64,000 bases of DNA, taken from a phage. The DNA lies in sequence record PV805633.1; one strand, written 5' to 3'. Positions within the stretch are counted from its first letter, which is position 1, and each line of letters starts with the position of its first letter. The notes beneath the pieces are model-generated. The model saw only the letters and a list, made by a program, of their open reading frames with translations, made no database searches and was not told the DNA's origin. This document shows, piece after piece, positions 1,416-13,806 of this stretch. Both the position numbers and the translations under genes were made by a program.

Positions 1416-1715
1416 ATGCGTACATTATGTAACCGTTATAACTCACAGAAGTTGATTGTTACGTTGCAACCTTGGGGTAGTAAGATGTCATTGGATGCTC
1501 GTTGGCAAGTGTCTGTAGAAGGCAAGAATGGCAAATGTCATGACCACTACTTCGTAGCTAAGCCTACTCGTAAACAAATCCGTAAACTTCACAAAGTACG
1601 TAAGCATTACTTACTAAGTAAATGCTACGAATGTGGCAAAAGGATAGAACTAGGTAAAGAATTTACTTTTGATGATCTCAACTATGCTCACAATAACTGC
1701 TTAGGAACTAAATAA
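1416..1715 (+). CDS. hypothetical Cys-containing protein (possible zinc-binding)
   Basis: ORF track; AAGGAG SD; CHDHY...CYECGK spacing. Confidence 0.55.
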   Translation: MRTLCNRYNSQKLIVTLQPWGSKMSLDARWQVSVEGKNGKCHDHYFVAKPTRKQIRKLHKVRKHYLLSKCYECGKRIELGKEFTFDDLNYAHNNCLGTK

Positions 1716-1817
1716 AATGACTACTCATAAAATTGTAAAAAGCTGGACTACTGAAGCTGGTTTATCTGCTGTAATCCTGCTAGTAATGATGGTTCTCACC
1801 ATTGTGGTTACGTAGCA

Positions 1818-2120
1818 TTGCCTGCTGATTTAGCAGACAAAGACTTTATTAATTATGATCCAGAAGAATCCATTTCTGTTCATGGTGGTGTTACCTATCA
1901 AGATGCACTTCCTCAATTAGAGGATAAAATCGCTATCGGTTTTGATTGTGCTCATCACGGTGACCTCATGAAATGCCCTGAGAAGTACAAAGGTACTCCT
2001 CTGGAAGGACTGCGCATGTATTCAGAAGGTGTATGGCGAGATGAGCAATATTGCACCAATGAGTGTGAGTCTATGGCTAAACAACTAATGGCAATGTTGC
2101 CTAAACAACTAGAAGGATAA
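1818..2120 (+). CDS. hypothetical protein; 5-prime end uncertain
   Basis: ORF track (TTG start, no SD); frame is open upstream to about 1755 and may join the ATG-initiated ORF at 1717 through a 1-nt frame change near a T run. Confidence 0.35.
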   Translation: MPADLADKDFINYDPEESISVHGGVTYQDALPQLEDKIAIGFDCAHHGDLMKCPEKYKGTPLEGLRMYSEGVWRDEQYCTNECESMAKQLMAMLPKQLEG

Positions 2121-3773: not shown

Positions 3774-4012
3774 TCTACGAAGAATATTATGTATTCAAAA
3801 AGGGAGATGATTTTATAGCTATGCCTAATAATTACAGGGGTTGGCATACAACTCCTGTATTAAAGGAAGCATTTTCCGTACCCAACCTGGAAGAGGTTAA
3901 TAAAGTAATGAACGGAGTAATGCTAACAAGAGGTATGGCTTACAAAATAGACGCATTAGAAGGAGCTTCTGTATGCAAAGTAACTACATCCATTGAGGTA
4001 CTTAAACCATGA
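3770..4012 (+). CDS. hypothetical protein
   Basis: ORF track; start/stop coupling. Confidence 0.5.
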   Translation: MIYEEYYVFKKGDDFIAMPNNYRGWHTTPVLKEAFSVPNLEEVNKVMNGVMLTRGMAYKIDALEGASVCKVTTSIEVLKP

Positions 4013-4389
4013 AAACTATCCCATTAGGTGATAACACCAATGCTTTGATGGGTGTATCCGCACGTCCAATTATCATTGTTAATAAACATCACGGTAAATC
4101 CGGTGAGTATATTGGACGTGGCTCACCGTTAGGCAATCCATTCGTCATTGGTAAACATGGAACCAGAGAGCAAGTAATTGCTAAGTATAAAGTCTGGCTA
4201 CAAGAACAGATTGATAAAGGTAATCCAGTTGTACTGGATGAACTTAATCGTCTTGGTAATAAAGCCATAGATGAAAAAGGATTAGCCTTACAGTGCTTCT
4301 GTTATCCAAAACCATGTCATGGTGCGGTTATTAAAGAGAAGCTAGTAAAGGCTATGTATAACTACTTTGTAGAAAATTCAAAAGGATAA
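4009..4389 (+). CDS. DUF4326-like protein
   Basis: EYIGRGSPLGNPF motif recalled from the DUF4326 family. Confidence 0.5.
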   Translation: MKTIPLGDNTNALMGVSARPIIIVNKHHGKSGEYIGRGSPLGNPFVIGKHGTREQVIAKYKVWLQEQIDKGNPVVLDELNRLGNKAIDEKGLALQCFCYPKPCHGAVIKEKLVKAMYNYFVENSKG

Positions 4390-4392
4390 TTC

Positions 4393-4743
4393 ATGAAAGA
4401 AATCTTAGTATTCACTACCAATGTACTTGGGCAGCATACCAATGCTGCTGCCAAGTTAGCTTATAAGAAGCACGGTGCACGTTGGGGCATGGCCTACGGT
4501 CATTATGGTAATAGCTTTGCCATCCCAGTAAGGGATGGCAATGGTAACCGAATTAAAGAGGGTGCTATCTATGGCTTCGTTGAAGGCTTTATTTCCTATG
4601 CATCTACTAATCCACAGTGGGATTTCAAAGTAATGGGAGATGACTATCTGGACCCATACCTGTTCAATAATGTTACTGGCAATGTACTGTTACCAGAAGC
4701 ATGGCGTAAATACTTAGGTGATGCTTACAACTACTGGTCATAA
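4393..4743 (+). CDS. hypothetical protein
   Basis: ORF track. Confidence 0.5.
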   Translation: MKEILVFTTNVLGQHTNAAAKLAYKKHGARWGMAYGHYGNSFAIPVRDGNGNRIKEGAIYGFVEGFISYASTNPQWDFKVMGDDYLDPYLFNNVTGNVLLPEAWRKYLGDAYNYWS

Positions 4744-4747
4744 GAAG

Positions 4748-4791: not shown

Positions 4792-5610
4792 ATGTACTCA
4801 TCTATCGAACATCAGAAGCAGCTTGAAGTCCTATTCAATAAAAATCAATTACTGCCTCGCATGAGGAAGGAATTCGAGGACTCCAAAGAAATTGACTTTA
4901 AGGCATTCGCTGCCTATTTGGAAATTGATTATAAGCTGCTCATTGATGCAATGGTACAAATTGCCCTACATAAACGTGCTGACATCCAGACTATGATTGG
5001 CTCTCTCATGAGTCACTCAGATGATGCTCAGTACATCGCTGACTGTCTGTATAAGATGGCAGAGAATGACTGCTTCAACTATGACCCTACCATCGACAAG
5101 TTCGGTGTTATCTATGAGATTAGTGAAGATGTTCAGATGGAACTGGAAGCATTCCAGTATCCATTACCTATCGTAAGTGCTCCTAATCCTGTCAGAACTA
5201 ACAGGGATACTGGTTATTACCAGACTAAAGGAAGCATCATCCTCAAGAAGAACCATCATGAGATGGATGTCTGCCTTGACCACATCAACCGTATGAACAA
5301 TCAACGTCTCTGTATTAACTGGGACGTTGCTAACTATGTAAAAGACTCTCGTCCTAACATGGATAAACCCAAAGAGGGTGAAACCCGTCAGGAATATGAG
5401 AAACGTGTTAAAGCCTTTGAGAAGTACAGTCGTACAGCTAAGGAAGTAATGGAGTTAGTGACCCAAGAAGGTAATAACTTCTCACTAGGCCACAAATACG
5501 ACAAACGTGGGCGTACCTACGCTCAGGGCTATCACATTAACTATCAGGGAACCAGCTACAACAAAGCTGTTCTGGAGTTCGCTGATAAGGAGCTGGTAAA
5601 CGATGATTAA
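4792..5610 (+). CDS. phage RNA polymerase II small subunit (N-terminal part of a T7-like single-subunit RNAP; N4 gp15-like)
   Basis: KYDKRGRTYAQGYHINYQG resembles the T7 RNAP DWRGRVYAV...NPQG region; size 272 aa and position match N4 gp15. Confidence 0.65.
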   Translation: MYSSIEHQKQLEVLFNKNQLLPRMRKEFEDSKEIDFKAFAAYLEIDYKLLIDAMVQIALHKRADIQTMIGSLMSHSDDAQYIADCLYKMAENDCFNYDPTIDKFGVIYEISEDVQMELEAFQYPLPIVSAPNPVRTNRDTGYYQTKGSIILKKNHHEMDVCLDHINRMNNQRLCINWDVANYVKDSRPNMDKPKEGETRQEYEKRVKAFEKYSRTAKEVMELVTQEGNNFSLGHKYDKRGRTYAQGYHINYQGTSYNKAVLEFADKELVNDD

Positions 5611-5736
5611 TAATCGTGCAGTAGAAGACTTCTATGCTCATAGAGAGTTGGTACTGAAACGTATCAATGAAGCAATGAAACGTGAAGCAGAAGCTAAAGC
5701 TAAACGTAACCGTAAATAAATCCAAATGCGAGCCAA

Positions 5737-6185
5737 GTGGCTCAAGACGCTAAGGAATATAAAATGCAACTGTTAACCGCCCGTGAATACCTGAAAGTAG
5801 ATATCGCTAACAACTATGGCTTAGACAAAAAGACATGGGATGAGCGTATTAGCTGGTTCGATGAGAACGAAGCTAACCTGCTCAATCTGGTAGATGAAGC
5901 TGAAGAATCTGCACTGTTCTACGCAGGTGTAAACGCTTGGAAAGATATGAAAGCTGGTAAGCCTATCGGTTATGCCGTAGCTCTGGATGCTACATCATCT
6001 GGCTTGCAGTTACTGGCTTGCTTGACTGGTGATCGTTCTGCTGCTGAATTGTGTAATGTAGTTAACTACATGGGCGAGAATGGTAAGCCATTACGACGTG
6101 ATGCTTATACAGTTATCTATCACAAGATGCTGGACATCCTTGGTGAATCATCCCGTATTAAACGTAGTGATACTAAGCAGGCCGT
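5737..6185 (+). CDS. phage RNA polymerase II large subunit, exon 1 (motif A)
   Basis: LDATSSGLQLLACLTGD matches T7 RNAP motif A; frame ends 2 codons into the insertion; RIKRSDTKQAV is the first half of motif B. Confidence 0.7.
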
Positions 6186-6991
6186 TAACCTATAAGTCAT
6201 GGCGGCCTTTAAACCGGGTGAACTCATGGAACATCCCTAGTGGACAATCATGAGCCAAGTTGGTAACGTAGAAAGCTCAATAAGGAGCATTCTATGTCAG
6301 AATTCAAAACGTGCAGTCGATGTAAAGAATTACTTCCTATCGAAGTATTCCCAGAGACTAAAAAAGCAATCACAGGACTCAAGACTAATTACGAGAATCG
6401 TTGCAGACCTTGCAAGGCTGCTGCTGCTCGTGAATGGCGTAAAAATAATCCCGGTTACACTGGAACTGGGATTCTTAAGGCAATACCGGAAGAGCATCGT
6501 AATGGTATTCAGCAGTCTCACTTAGACTGAGAGATGCAAAGAGCAGATGTAAAAAGCTCGGTAAGCCTATGCCTGATTGCACAGTAGAGTACTTATTTGA
6601 AATCCTTAAATCACAGGAATTCAAATGTGCTTTAACTGGTGCAACCTTAGTAATTGAGTCGGGACATCCCTTGTGTCTATCATTAGACCAGATAGAGCCA
6701 AGCAAGGGATATAGTATTGATAATGTTCAATGGTTAGCTTGGTGTGTAAACCGAGCAAAGGGTGACCTTTCTACCAATGACTTTATTGATATGTGTGATG
6801 CTGTTTTGAATAACCAAAAGGTGCAGAGACTATCGAAAAGCAGCGTAAGCTGAACTTAGTAGAGTAGGCCCAAGTGGGTCGAAGCGCCCGGCTAGACTAA
6901 TAGTCTAGATGATATAGTCCGAACTCACTGGTAACAGTGAGATGCAGGTAAAGCTGCTGGGGAAGATTAACGACCTTCCTTGAACATAATG
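6186..6991 (+). mobile_element. putative group I intron carrying an HNH homing endonuclease
   Basis: Splits motif B; exon 1 ends in T, intron ends in G; GCGGCC guide sequence about 16 nt in pairs with the exon end GGCCGT with U-G at the splice site; P7-like AGACTA/TAGTCC and S-like GATGATATAGTCCG; internal ORF has its own AAGGAG SD. Confidence 0.6.
6294..6853 (+). CDS. HNH-family homing endonuclease, disrupted by a 1-nt frame change near 6500-6510
   Basis: N-terminal CSRCK...CRPCK zinc ribbon (ORF 6294..6530); C-terminal LRLRDAKSRCKKLGKP...CALTG...SLDQIEP..GYSIDNVQW..CVNRAKG in another frame (open from 6503, ORF 6569..6853). Confidence 0.55.
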
Positions 6992-7787
6992 TATGACTGC
7001 ATTCTATGGTTCAGAAGCCAAGCCTAAAGAAGTATTCGGTGAAGGTATTCGTCTCAAGACTTTTGAGAATGTAATGGAAACAGTTGCTAGTGGACCTTGG
7101 GCACTGAACAAGTTCTTACTGCAATGTGGTGACCCGGATGCTAACCGTTACGTATGGATACTGCCTGACAACTTCCATGCTGTCATTAAGGTCATGGTTC
7201 CAGAAGTACAGACTGTTAACTTCTTAGGTAAGCCATTCGACATCACTCGTATGGTTCAGGGTACTGAAGATAAGACTCGTATGCTCTCTGCTAACATCAC
7301 CCACTCTATTGATGGAATGGTGGTACGTGAGATGCTACGTCGTTGTAACTTCAACATGAACCAAGTGAACTATGTTAAGCCCCTCTGTGAAGGAACCAGT
7401 GAGTATATGCTGGGTACTAGCGAGAACTACGACATGGTTAGTCAACTGTGGCATAACTATGAGAAATCAGGATTCCTGTCTACCCGTATCTTTGATTATC
7501 TGGATTCTGACTCAATTAAACTGGTTGATACAGATGTAATCATGGCTATGCTTAATACCATGCCTAAGAAACCATTCCCTGTAATGACCGTACATGACTG
7601 CTTCCGTTGCCACCCTAACTACGGTAATGACTTGCGTCGTCAGTACAATCAGATTCTGTCTGACATTGCTAAGAGTGATCTACTGGGCTTCATCCTGTCT
7701 CAGGTACTGAGACAAGAGTTCTCTGCTGGTAAGCTGGATGACAGCCTCTGGCAGGACATCCTTGAAACGGATTATGCATTAAGTTAA
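6992..7787 (+). CDS. phage RNA polymerase II large subunit, exon 2 (motifs B and C)
   Basis: MTAFYGSEAKPK matches T7 MTLAYGSKEFG; VHDCF matches T7 motif C IHDSFG; exon 1 + exon 2 = about 414 aa, close to N4 gp16. Confidence 0.7.
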
Positions 7788-7794
7788 TAAACTG

Positions 7795-7829
7795 GCCTCA
7801 TACCTTCGGGTATGGGGCTTTTATTTTTT
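7795..7829 (+). terminator. rho-independent terminator
   Basis: GCCTCATACC-TTCG-GGTATGGGGC followed by TTTTATTTTTT. Confidence 0.7.
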
Positions 7830-7831
7830 GC

Positions 7832-8029
7832 TTGGAGGTAGTCAACATGACAGACATCTATGATGTTATTACTAAAACTGTACTGATAGTTTTATCTGCT
7901 ATTGTGGTATTCACTATAGCCAATGTTCATAAATCCAAGTTTTCCTATTGCTACTATGGGGCATATTCTGCCGGATGTTTTGTATTAGCCGGTTGGATAG
8001 CTTACTGGATTTACCACATCAACAACTAG
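7832..8029 (+). CDS. small membrane protein (65 aa)
   Basis: ORF track; two hydrophobic segments. Confidence 0.5.
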   Translation: MEVVNMTDIYDVITKTVLIVLSAIVVFTIANVHKSKFSYCYYGAYSAGCFVLAGWIAYWIYHINN

Positions 8030-8056
8030 CCACCCTCATGGGTGGCTTTCTTTTTA
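8030..8056 (+). terminator. rho-independent terminator
   Basis: GCCACCC-TCAT-GGGTGGC followed by TTTCTTTTT. Confidence 0.65.
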
Positions 8057-9223: not shown

Positions 9224-9480
9224 ATATTCATAATCTACGTTTGGTTGAAAGACTGTATGAAGAATACAACGACAACCGACAGCAATTAGCTAGTATAAAA
9301 AAGTCCCCACATATGGTGAAAGTAACCTTCTGTGATACAGATTTGGGGGTACAAGCACGTACAAGCATAATCCCTAAATTGGTAGCATTTTATCAGAAGA
9401 AAGTGGATGACTTAGAGAAACGCCTAAAGCATTTAGGAGTTGACCTATCTTTATTACCTGAAGAAGAGGAAGAAGAGTGA
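9220..9480 (+). CDS. hypothetical protein
   Basis: ORF track; start/stop coupling. Confidence 0.5.
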   Translation: MNIHNLRLVERLYEEYNDNRQQLASIKKSPHMVKVTFCDTDLGVQARTSIIPKLVAFYQKKVDDLEKRLKHLGVDLSLLPEEEEEE

Positions 9481-13412: not shown

Positions 13413-13494
13413 TTACAGGTACTCTTATGTCAAACAGACAAATGGTAAGTCTATCTTATATGGACTGGACTTAAGTAAACTGGAACAAACTGCA

Positions 13495-13806
13495 ATGCTT
13501 ACTTTAGGTATACATGACCAAGTAGAAGTGAATGGAATTGGTCCTGATGTTTGTGCAGCAATGCAAGCTGCTATTCAGAAAGGATGGACTAGTAGATCAT
13601 TTAATGTTTTCCCATACATCCCTCCTGAACCTCATCTGAAATCTAAGGTAGACAGAATCATAGATAAGTTCTGGCTTAGCCCATGCGGGGATGACATGCA
13701 TCTTTACCTGGCTCAAATACAAAAGAATCCGCGTACTAAAGATGTGTTCAAAGGCAAAAGCACTACCCACCATTACCCTTGGTATAGAAGAGGTAGTAAA
13801 TACTAA
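13495..13806 (+). CDS. hypothetical protein
   Basis: ORF track 13399..13806 begins with GTG inside the terminator hairpin; first ATG in frame used instead. Confidence 0.4.
   Translation: MLTLGIHDQVEVNGIGPDVCAAMQAAIQKGWTSRSFNVFPYIPPEPHLKSKVDRIIDKFWLSPCGDDMHLYLAQIQKNPRTKDVFKGKSTTHHYPWYRRGSKY

Follow-up and report, generated by a model that had tools for sequence, protein, structure and literature searches.

A probable mobile group I intron of subgroup IA in the RNA polymerase II large-subunit gene of a G7C-like coliphage

Babenko et al. (2019; bioRxiv 10.1101/542787) described identical insertions of ~800 bp in gene 16 (g16) of two G7C-like phages, N4G2 and Sz33. In Sz33-infected cells, splicing was detected by reverse transcription-PCR (RT-PCR) and the junction was sequenced, while the cloned intron-containing g16 gave rise to a full-size gp16 in E. 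coli, with the junction peptide QAVMTAFYGSEAK identified by matrix-assisted laser desorption ionization-time of flight (MALDI-TOF) analysis (bioRxiv 10.1101/542787). Here, we analyze a stretch of phage DNA of 64,000 nucleotides (nt) (sequence record PV805633.1; the window), in which gene 16, encoding the large subunit (gp16) of the heterodimeric middle-gene RNA polymerase (RNA polymerase II [RNAP II, or RNAP2]) of a G7C-like coliphage, is interrupted by 806 bases. With a probability that we put at about 0.93, this insert (6186-6991) is a mobile phage group I intron of the IA type. The N4G2/Sz33 intron matches it in phage group, gene, insert size, internal homing-nuclease open reading frame (ORF), and junction peptide; the likeness is one of description, and the published fold is energy minimized only. 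The published peptide (QAV followed by MTAFYGSEAK) agrees with the junction predicted for the window, so that the RT-PCR evidence called for by the initial annotation of this DNA exists for relatives. That annotation knew of no N4-like phage with an intron here; one had in fact been reported (bioRxiv 10.1101/542787), and an intron at the exact junction is already known experimentally in G7C-like phages. What is added here is an IA-type P1-P10 model with covariation, the occurrence of the intron at one and the same codon in several genera of Schitoviridae and in many metagenomic N4-like genomes annotated with split genes, a natural ORF-less form of the intron, and a PacI-like fold for its endonuclease.

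Interrupted RNAP2 genes have attracted attention before. Amgarten et al. (2017) noted that RNAP2 of Pseudomonas phage ZC08 has an endonuclease within it (PMC5418858), and two papers explicitly puzzled over the RNAP2 split (PMC3915230, PMC4496689). The insertion was not called an intron by Wittmann et al. or by Amgarten et al. (PMC5418858); Babenko et al. did so.

Boundaries of the insertion in gene 16

From its first base onward, the window follows the left end of Escherichia phage G7C (Gamaleyavirus, Schitoviridae) collinearly, with 91 to 97% identity, and the ORF at 4792-5610 encodes gp15, the small RNAP II subunit. Motifs A, B, and C of the T7-like polymerase family are present in gp16, which is needed for middle transcription (reviewed in PMC4496689). 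Aligned with the intact G7C gene 16, the window shows one clean gap, in which an additional 806 bases separate T6185 from T6992, at a point where G7C runs uninterrupted from ...AAGCAGGCAGT into TATGACTGCG. The initial annotation had placed the break between RSDTKQAV and MTAFYGS, and the comparison with intron-less homologs that it proposed indeed reveals a precise insert there. Removal of 6186-6991 leaves an open frame of 1,245 nt reading ...IKRSDTKQAV and then MTAFYGSEAKPKE..., with a junction identical to that of G7C, which bears out the earlier proposal that joining 6185 to 6992 would restore both the frame and the motif. The joined gp16 of 405 amino acids (aa) aligns over its full length with N4 RNAP2 (PDB 6DT7_B, 404 aa; E value, 5.5e-192) and is ungapped at the junction. 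The Pfam RNA_pol profile (PF00940) scores 41.4 bits on exon 1 alone (residues 17 to 135) and 54.3 bits on the joined protein (residues 8 to 148, spanning the junction); joining therefore carries the domain match past the junction. The insert falls within the O-helix/motif B of the polymerase, whose motif residues we take to be K631 and Y639 in T7 numbering. A gene start at GTG 5737, as given in the mechanical ORF list, is less apt than ATG 5764, which is probably the true start, since it fits the G7C/N4 N terminus MQ.FTA.EYLK.

Read into the insert, the exon 1 frame continues as Val-Asn-Leu-stop (TAA at 6193-6195), so that unspliced RNA would yield only a truncated product of 143 aa. Because TT occupies 6185-6186 and T occupies 6992, placement of the insert by alignment is ambiguous by one base; we assign it to 6186-6991, since only this placement gives an exon-end U and an intron-end G, as group I chemistry requires. 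No terminator-like site was found on the + strand within the insert, the first being the one that starts at 7794, after the gene; a second hairpin at 8028-8047 (region 8028-8056) scores on both strands. A megablast search of 5500-8000 against 50,697 phage records returned 62 G7C-like records, none with the insert. Coordinates of all features are collected in Table 1.

Table 1. Features of the interrupted gene 16 and of the proposed intron (window coordinates)
Feature	Position	Strand	Description and basis
Gene 16 exon 1	5764..6185	+	Residues 1-140 and first two bases of Val141; alignments with G7C gp16 and 6DT7_B, Pfam
P1 hairpin	6179..6208	+	A6179-U6185 with G6202-U6208; loop holds the in-frame TAA
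Group I intron, subgroup IA-like (probable)	6186..6991	+	806 nt; insert relative to G7C, sub-threshold RF00028 match, covariation, same-site homologs
P10	6195..6201	+	7 bp; 5' half of guide, pairs with first seven exon 2 bases (6992-6998)
P3	6214-6220 / 6885-6891	+	100% of cells paired; double changes in 3/7 pairs
P4	6223-6228 / 6249-6254	+	Encloses P5; covariation alignment, RNAalifold
P5	6234-6236 / 6242-6244	+	Covariation alignment, RNAalifold
P6	6255-6256 / 6820-6821	+	100% paired
P6a	6260-6264 / 6813-6817	+	5/5 pairs covary; 100% paired
Shine-Dalgarno sequence	6282..6287	+	AAGGAG, 6 nt before endonuclease ATG 6294
Endonuclease, N-terminal piece	6294..6530	+	78 aa; four-Cys zinc-finger region; ended early by frameshift
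Frameshift site	6498..6505	+	CGTAATGG in window, CGTAAATGG in 93%-identical relatives; one A missing
Endonuclease, C-terminal part	6503..6853	+	-1 frame; first ATG 6569, 94-aa ORF; beta-beta-alpha-metal core; stop TGA 6851-6853
P7	6828-6833 / 6914-6919	+	GACUAU/AUAGUC; pseudoknot with P3; fits RF00028 consensus AGACUA...UAGUC
P7.1	6841-6844 / 6849-6852	+	GUAA loop; compensatory changes
P7.2	6867-6871 / 6876-6880	+	Compensatory: GGCCC/GGGUC to GGUUC/GAACC and GGCAC/GUGUC
P8	6892-6898 / 6902-6908	+	Followed by J8/7 and P7 3' strand within GAUGAUAUAGUCC
P9	6924-6930 / 6935-6941	+	Double changes in 6/7 pairs
P9.1	6944-6947 / 6954-6957	+	Covariation alignment, RNAalifold
P9.2	6959-6965 / 6975-6981	+	Compensatory change even against 93% relative L033
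Terminal (omega) G	6991	+	Last intron base, G in 11/11 same-site introns
Gene 16 exon 2	6992..7787	+	Third base of Val141, then MTAFYGS... to stop codon; G7C and 6DT7_B alignments
Terminator-like hairpin and T-run	7794..7829	+	3' of gene 16; strong

Fold of the insert and its conservation among same-site relatives

The splice sites are defined by a single guide. Exon 1 ends in U6185, and a U6185.G6202 wobble closes a 7-bp P1. One contiguous 14-nt guide at 6195-6208 (AGUCAUG, then GCGGCCU) serves both P1 and P10, whose helices abut, and complements the ligated junction (AGGCCGU, then UAUGACU) at each of its 14 positions when G.U pairs are allowed. By our own rough arithmetic, such a match would arise by chance with a probability of (3/8)^14, or ~1e-6 per position and ~3e-5 in the first 40 nt. 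The exon-end U, its U-G pair, the GCGGCC guide (6202-6207, i.e., 17 to 22 nt inside the intron), and the terminal G (G6991) had all been noted in the initial annotation, as had a sequence resembling the S element, which corresponds to GATGATATAGTCCG at 6909-6922.

The full fold was modeled by comparison, and each listed pair was checked and is canonical in the window. The core contains P7.1 and P7.2 between P7 and the 3' strand of P3, a hallmark of subgroup IA, and has no P2; the loop of P6a (6265-6812, 548 nt) contains the endonuclease ORF. The P7 pairing first suggested needs revision: AGACTA (6895-6900) belongs to P8, and the true 5' strand lies upstream, at 6828-6833 (Table 1).

The same RNAP2 codon is split in Burkholderia phages HN02/04/05, Achromobacter phages JWAlpha and JWDelta, and Vibrio phages phi 1 and pVco-5. 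Same-site inserts are also found in IMG/VR contigs L011, L027, and L028, recovered by a core-motif scan, and in contigs that encode homologs of the endonuclease (L032 to L039, L041, L043, and L044). L027 (IMGVR_UViG_3300013132_000173, 2290-2647, - strand) carries a natural 325-nt same-site intron without an ORF, with a P6a loop of ~63 nt compared with ~550 nt. In all 11 tabulated same-site inserts, the last exon base is a U that pairs with a G of the guide, the last intron base is G, and splicing would restore the sequence K-x-(A/P)-(V/I/L/F)-M-T-(A/H)-(F/L). Across these inserts, the guide covaries with the exon (exon/guide: GGCCGU/GCGGCC, GGCGAU/GUCGCC, GGCCAU/GUGGCC, UGCGCU/GGCGCA, and CCUU/GAGG). 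P10 comprises 4 to 7 bp in 10 of the 11, with a U.G-to-A-U change in L041 and L044. The Vibrio introns (926-1833 of the phi 1 sequence L005 and 814-1713 of the pVco-5 sequence L006) contain an additional hairpin, UAUACA-GCAA-UGUAUA, that lies between P1 and P3 and is likely P2; their P1 is only 4 bp long and their P9.1 region is larger, and pVco-5 has no obvious P10.

For a test of covariation, we used eight diverse inserts at this site, drawn from five N4-like lineages and from metagenomes. In a full-length MAFFT alignment (A1), the 5' core of the ORF-less L027 was displaced into ORF columns; the P6a loop was therefore trimmed from each sequence, and the remainder was realigned (A2). In A2, 88.8% of cells are paired, compared with 31 to 40% when the 3' partners are slid by 1 to 3 columns, and 39 of the 77 proposed pairs show double compensatory changes. 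None of 500 shuffles attained the observed pairing or covariation score. P3, P4, P6, P6a, P7.2, and P9 are paired in 95 to 100% of cells. RNAalifold, given the alignment alone, recovered P1, P3, P4, P5, P6a, P7.1, P7.2, P9, P9.1, and P9.2, with compensatory changes in 34 of 65 pairs; this agreement concerns nested helices. The same-site homologs, the covariation, and RNAalifold thus concur on a P1-P10 fold, and the group I assignment that the initial annotation had proposed stands, as does its expectation that the region would fold into a P1-P9 core, P3 through P9.2 being supported with every pair canonical.

Searches with the Rfam group I model, another check proposed at that stage, gave a partial answer: both halves of the core were matched, below the gathering threshold. 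At that threshold, the whole window had no Rfam match, and the N4G2/Sz33 insert likewise has no significant one (bioRxiv 10.1101/542787). In a permissive scan of the whole window, this intron was the sole find. The RF00028 match at 6602-6941 (30.2 bits; E values of 1.6e-5 in a 1.2-kb stretch and 8.4e-4 in the whole window) is confidently aligned over the 3' core only (P8, J8/7, the 3' strand of P7, and P9), and a second match (6150-6403, 17.8 bits) spans the 5' core. The ORF-less L027 intron aligns to the full model with 49.8 bits (E value, 1.3e-11), 0.2 bits below the threshold of 50, and relatives with the P7-P7.2 core motif pass it with 59 to 91 bits.

That core motif, GCAGAGACTATCGAA...GTAGAGTAGG, is shared by a broader family of phage introns (L010, L012, L015 to L025, and L029 to L031 from IMG/VR, and L008) that reside in other genes, among them a gene for a family B DNA polymerase. 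Within ~1 kb, L018 has two introns that pass Rfam (82 and 75 bits). In L032 (JANDFC010000012.1, GCA_026132285.1), a close relative, gene 16 contains a second group I intron besides the one in motif B: it lies at 3798-4041, directly after the motif C residues TVHD, scores 91 bits with RF00028, above the threshold, and is followed by an AP2/HNH_3 endonuclease ORF (4102-4746). Both L032 introns are thus located at catalytic motifs; at the position corresponding to the second (~7598), the window is uninterrupted.

The endonuclease gene inside the intron

The initial annotation predicted an HNH endonuclease ORF with its own Shine-Dalgarno sequence. The Shine-Dalgarno sequence is present; the ORF is not single, being divided between two frames, and the HNH label holds at the level of the fold only. 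Relatives have a single endonuclease ORF of about 180 to 202 aa. The closest, P0001 (93% identical, 186 aa), is intact in L032 and L033, and its arrangement recurs on at least 13 contigs, one of them (74.8 kb) from a Salmonella assembly. The difference between P0001 and the window at the frameshift site shows one missing A to be the sole lesion, which may reflect either a genuine mutation or an error in sequencing. A wider decay around the frameshift was considered, as the window reads EHRNWYSAVS where the consensus is EDRLLMSAIR, and was rejected because the intact 93% relative has EHRKWYSAVS.

Pfam assigned no nuclease family to the two ORF pieces, the repaired ORF, or the intact homologs, and NCBIfam likewise gave none. 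PHROG matches were to "endonuclease VII" (1e-32) and "HNH endonuclease" (1e-7 to 2e-8). A beta-beta-alpha-metal (HNH/His-Me) fold was found, with PacI as the best structural match. A profile of the family searched against PDB sequences gave only insignificant matches, among which PacI (E value, 0.2) is plausible and TOM70 (E value, 0.08) is spurious. In an alignment of 53 homologs (A4), no His of the nuclease core is invariant or at least 90% conserved, and the core columns conserved at 90% or more include S130, D132, Y140, N144, and N153. PacI, too, we take to be an HNH enzyme whose active site is unusual. PacI and DraIII-type HNH nucleases share no significant sequence similarity with the intron endonuclease, which, unlike them, has an N-terminal four-Cys finger and is intron encoded.

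The 3' end of the ORF (6813-6853) passes through the 3' strands of P6a and P6, the 5' strand of P7, and P7.1. This overlap with the ribozyme core accounts for the nucleotide-level conservation of GCAGAGACUAUCGAA... across divergent ORFs, and because of it ribosomes finishing an intact endonuclease would unfold the catalytic core. The 1-nt deletion halts endonuclease translation ~320 nt earlier. The intron lies in motif B of the middle-gene polymerase, so that the phage would need RNA splicing to pass the early stage. It is conceivable, though improbable, that endonuclease translation competes with splicing of an early transcript that is essential, that the intron acts as a timer of the early-to-middle switch, and that loss of the frame was selected as speeding RNAP II.

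Compared over 1-48528 with positions 1-50000 of G7C, the window lacks all five free-standing HNH endonuclease genes found in this half of the G7C genome (gp2.1, ST15.1, gp24.1, gp41.1, and gp47.1), of which ST15.1 sits between gp15 and gp16; the broken nuclease gene of the g16 intron is the only one seen at the compared positions. For three segments of the window (1596-2113, 9224-9471, and 13421-13791), blastn gave no counterpart in the first 50 kb of G7C; these segments may be replaced or additional small genes.

Competing explanations and relation to known introns

We propose that gene 16 and its intron would be transcribed as a single pre-mRNA, in which the intron RNA would fold into the P1-P10 architecture presented above. 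Exogenous guanosine would attack after U6185, the freed exon 1 would in turn attack after G6991, and the ligated message (...GCC GU joined to U AUG ACU..., encoding A-V-M-T) would restore motif B and the 405-aa gp16. The P6a-loop endonuclease of the relatives presumably cuts intron-less alleles of gene 16 and drives homing; the 1-nt deletion has shifted the frame of its counterpart in the window and probably inactivated it.

Several observations weigh against this proposal. The RNA and protein evidence comes from related phages, for which it consists of in vivo splicing and the protein of a cloned gene. The window intron scores 30.2 bits against an RF00028 gathering threshold of 50; the shortfall arises because the 548-nt ORF loop in P6a splits the core and the model cannot bridge the ORF. 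P7 is identical in all eight aligned sequences and, being invariant, has no support from covariation either way. Finally, MAFFT left P8 and, in the two Vibrio sequences, parts of P1 (with P2) and P9.1 out of register, an error that depresses the paired percentage rather than raising it.

The insert could instead be a mobile endonuclease cassette that does not splice, with gp16 made in pieces, as polypeptides 1-143 and M142 to the end that assemble with gp15 to give a polymerase of three pieces. Such a mechanism has precedents in Aeh1 NrdA/mobE and in the g39 DNA polymerase gene of phage 10Gb, an insertion that showed no splicing and yielded two polypeptides (bioRxiv 10.1101/542787); it is therefore real elsewhere, and g39 is uninterrupted in the window. 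The reading frames would also permit it, since the exon 1 frame ends 3 codons after entering the insert while exon 2 opens with a native in-frame ATG, and RNAP2 is annotated in this style, as separate genes, in the GenBank entries for JWAlpha, HN02, phi 1, and pVco-5. However, the 20 nt before ATG 6993 (6973-6992, ACCTTCCTTGAACATAATGT) contain no Shine-Dalgarno sequence, ATG 6993 itself is part of P10, and the O-helix/motif B would be broken in two. Nor would a cassette explain a covarying ribozyme fold, a guide that tracks the exon, or the 325-nt insert of L027, which lacks an ORF and keeps the fold and for which a free-standing endonuclease cassette is therefore no explanation. Spliced RNA and full-length protein have, moreover, been seen for the g16 insertion in related phages (bioRxiv 10.1101/542787). 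Two separately translated pieces, the alternative that the initial annotation left standing, are consequently very unlikely here.

Less probable still is a decayed intron, in which the ribozyme of the window would be inactive along with the endonuclease, in a defective or misassembled genome: the frameshift could mark an element past its invasive phase, and the Rfam score is low, but all core helices are intact, the few core differences from 93%-identical relatives with an intact endonuclease include a compensatory one in P9.2, the contigs that share the arrangement are independent, and a splicing-dead allele would not propagate, since gp16 is essential for middle transcription (PMC4496689).

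An intron at this site bears on existing annotation. JWAlpha/JWDelta, HN02/04/05, phi 1, and pVco-5 were deposited with two RNAP2 genes and an "endonuclease" or "hypothetical protein," and many metagenomic N4-like contigs of 72 to 77 kb are annotated with the same split. These phages share with the window the homologous codon, the ribozyme core, and the endonuclease family; the HN02 insert is 75% identical in nucleotide sequence to that of the window over half of its length, and the endonuclease ORFs of these phages are intact, whereas that of the window is broken. The comparative fold indicates that the genes annotated as "split RNAP2" carry the intron seen in the window and are each a single spliced gene. 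At its curated threshold, the Rfam model for group I introns also fails to detect phage introns of the window type that contain an ORF.

Beyond the N4-like phages, the closest likeness is to the intron in gene 43B of Aeromonas phage 25 and its relatives, with 76 to 83% identity over ~100 nt around P7.2, P8, and the 3' strand of P7; the Aeromonas intron is annotated as group IA2 in its record and passes the Rfam threshold with 64 bits. Among T4-like IA2 introns, of which td, nrdB, and sunY of phage T4 are examples, the ORF is similarly looped out from a peripheral helix, an in-frame stop soon follows the 5' splice site, and the host gene belongs to nucleic acid metabolism. The window intron differs from them in that its host gene encodes a T7-like RNA polymerase, it has no P2, and its endonuclease is a PacI-like His-Me finger protein, neither GIY-YIG nor canonical HNH. 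In other respects, it would be a standard mobile group I intron at a conserved catalytic site.

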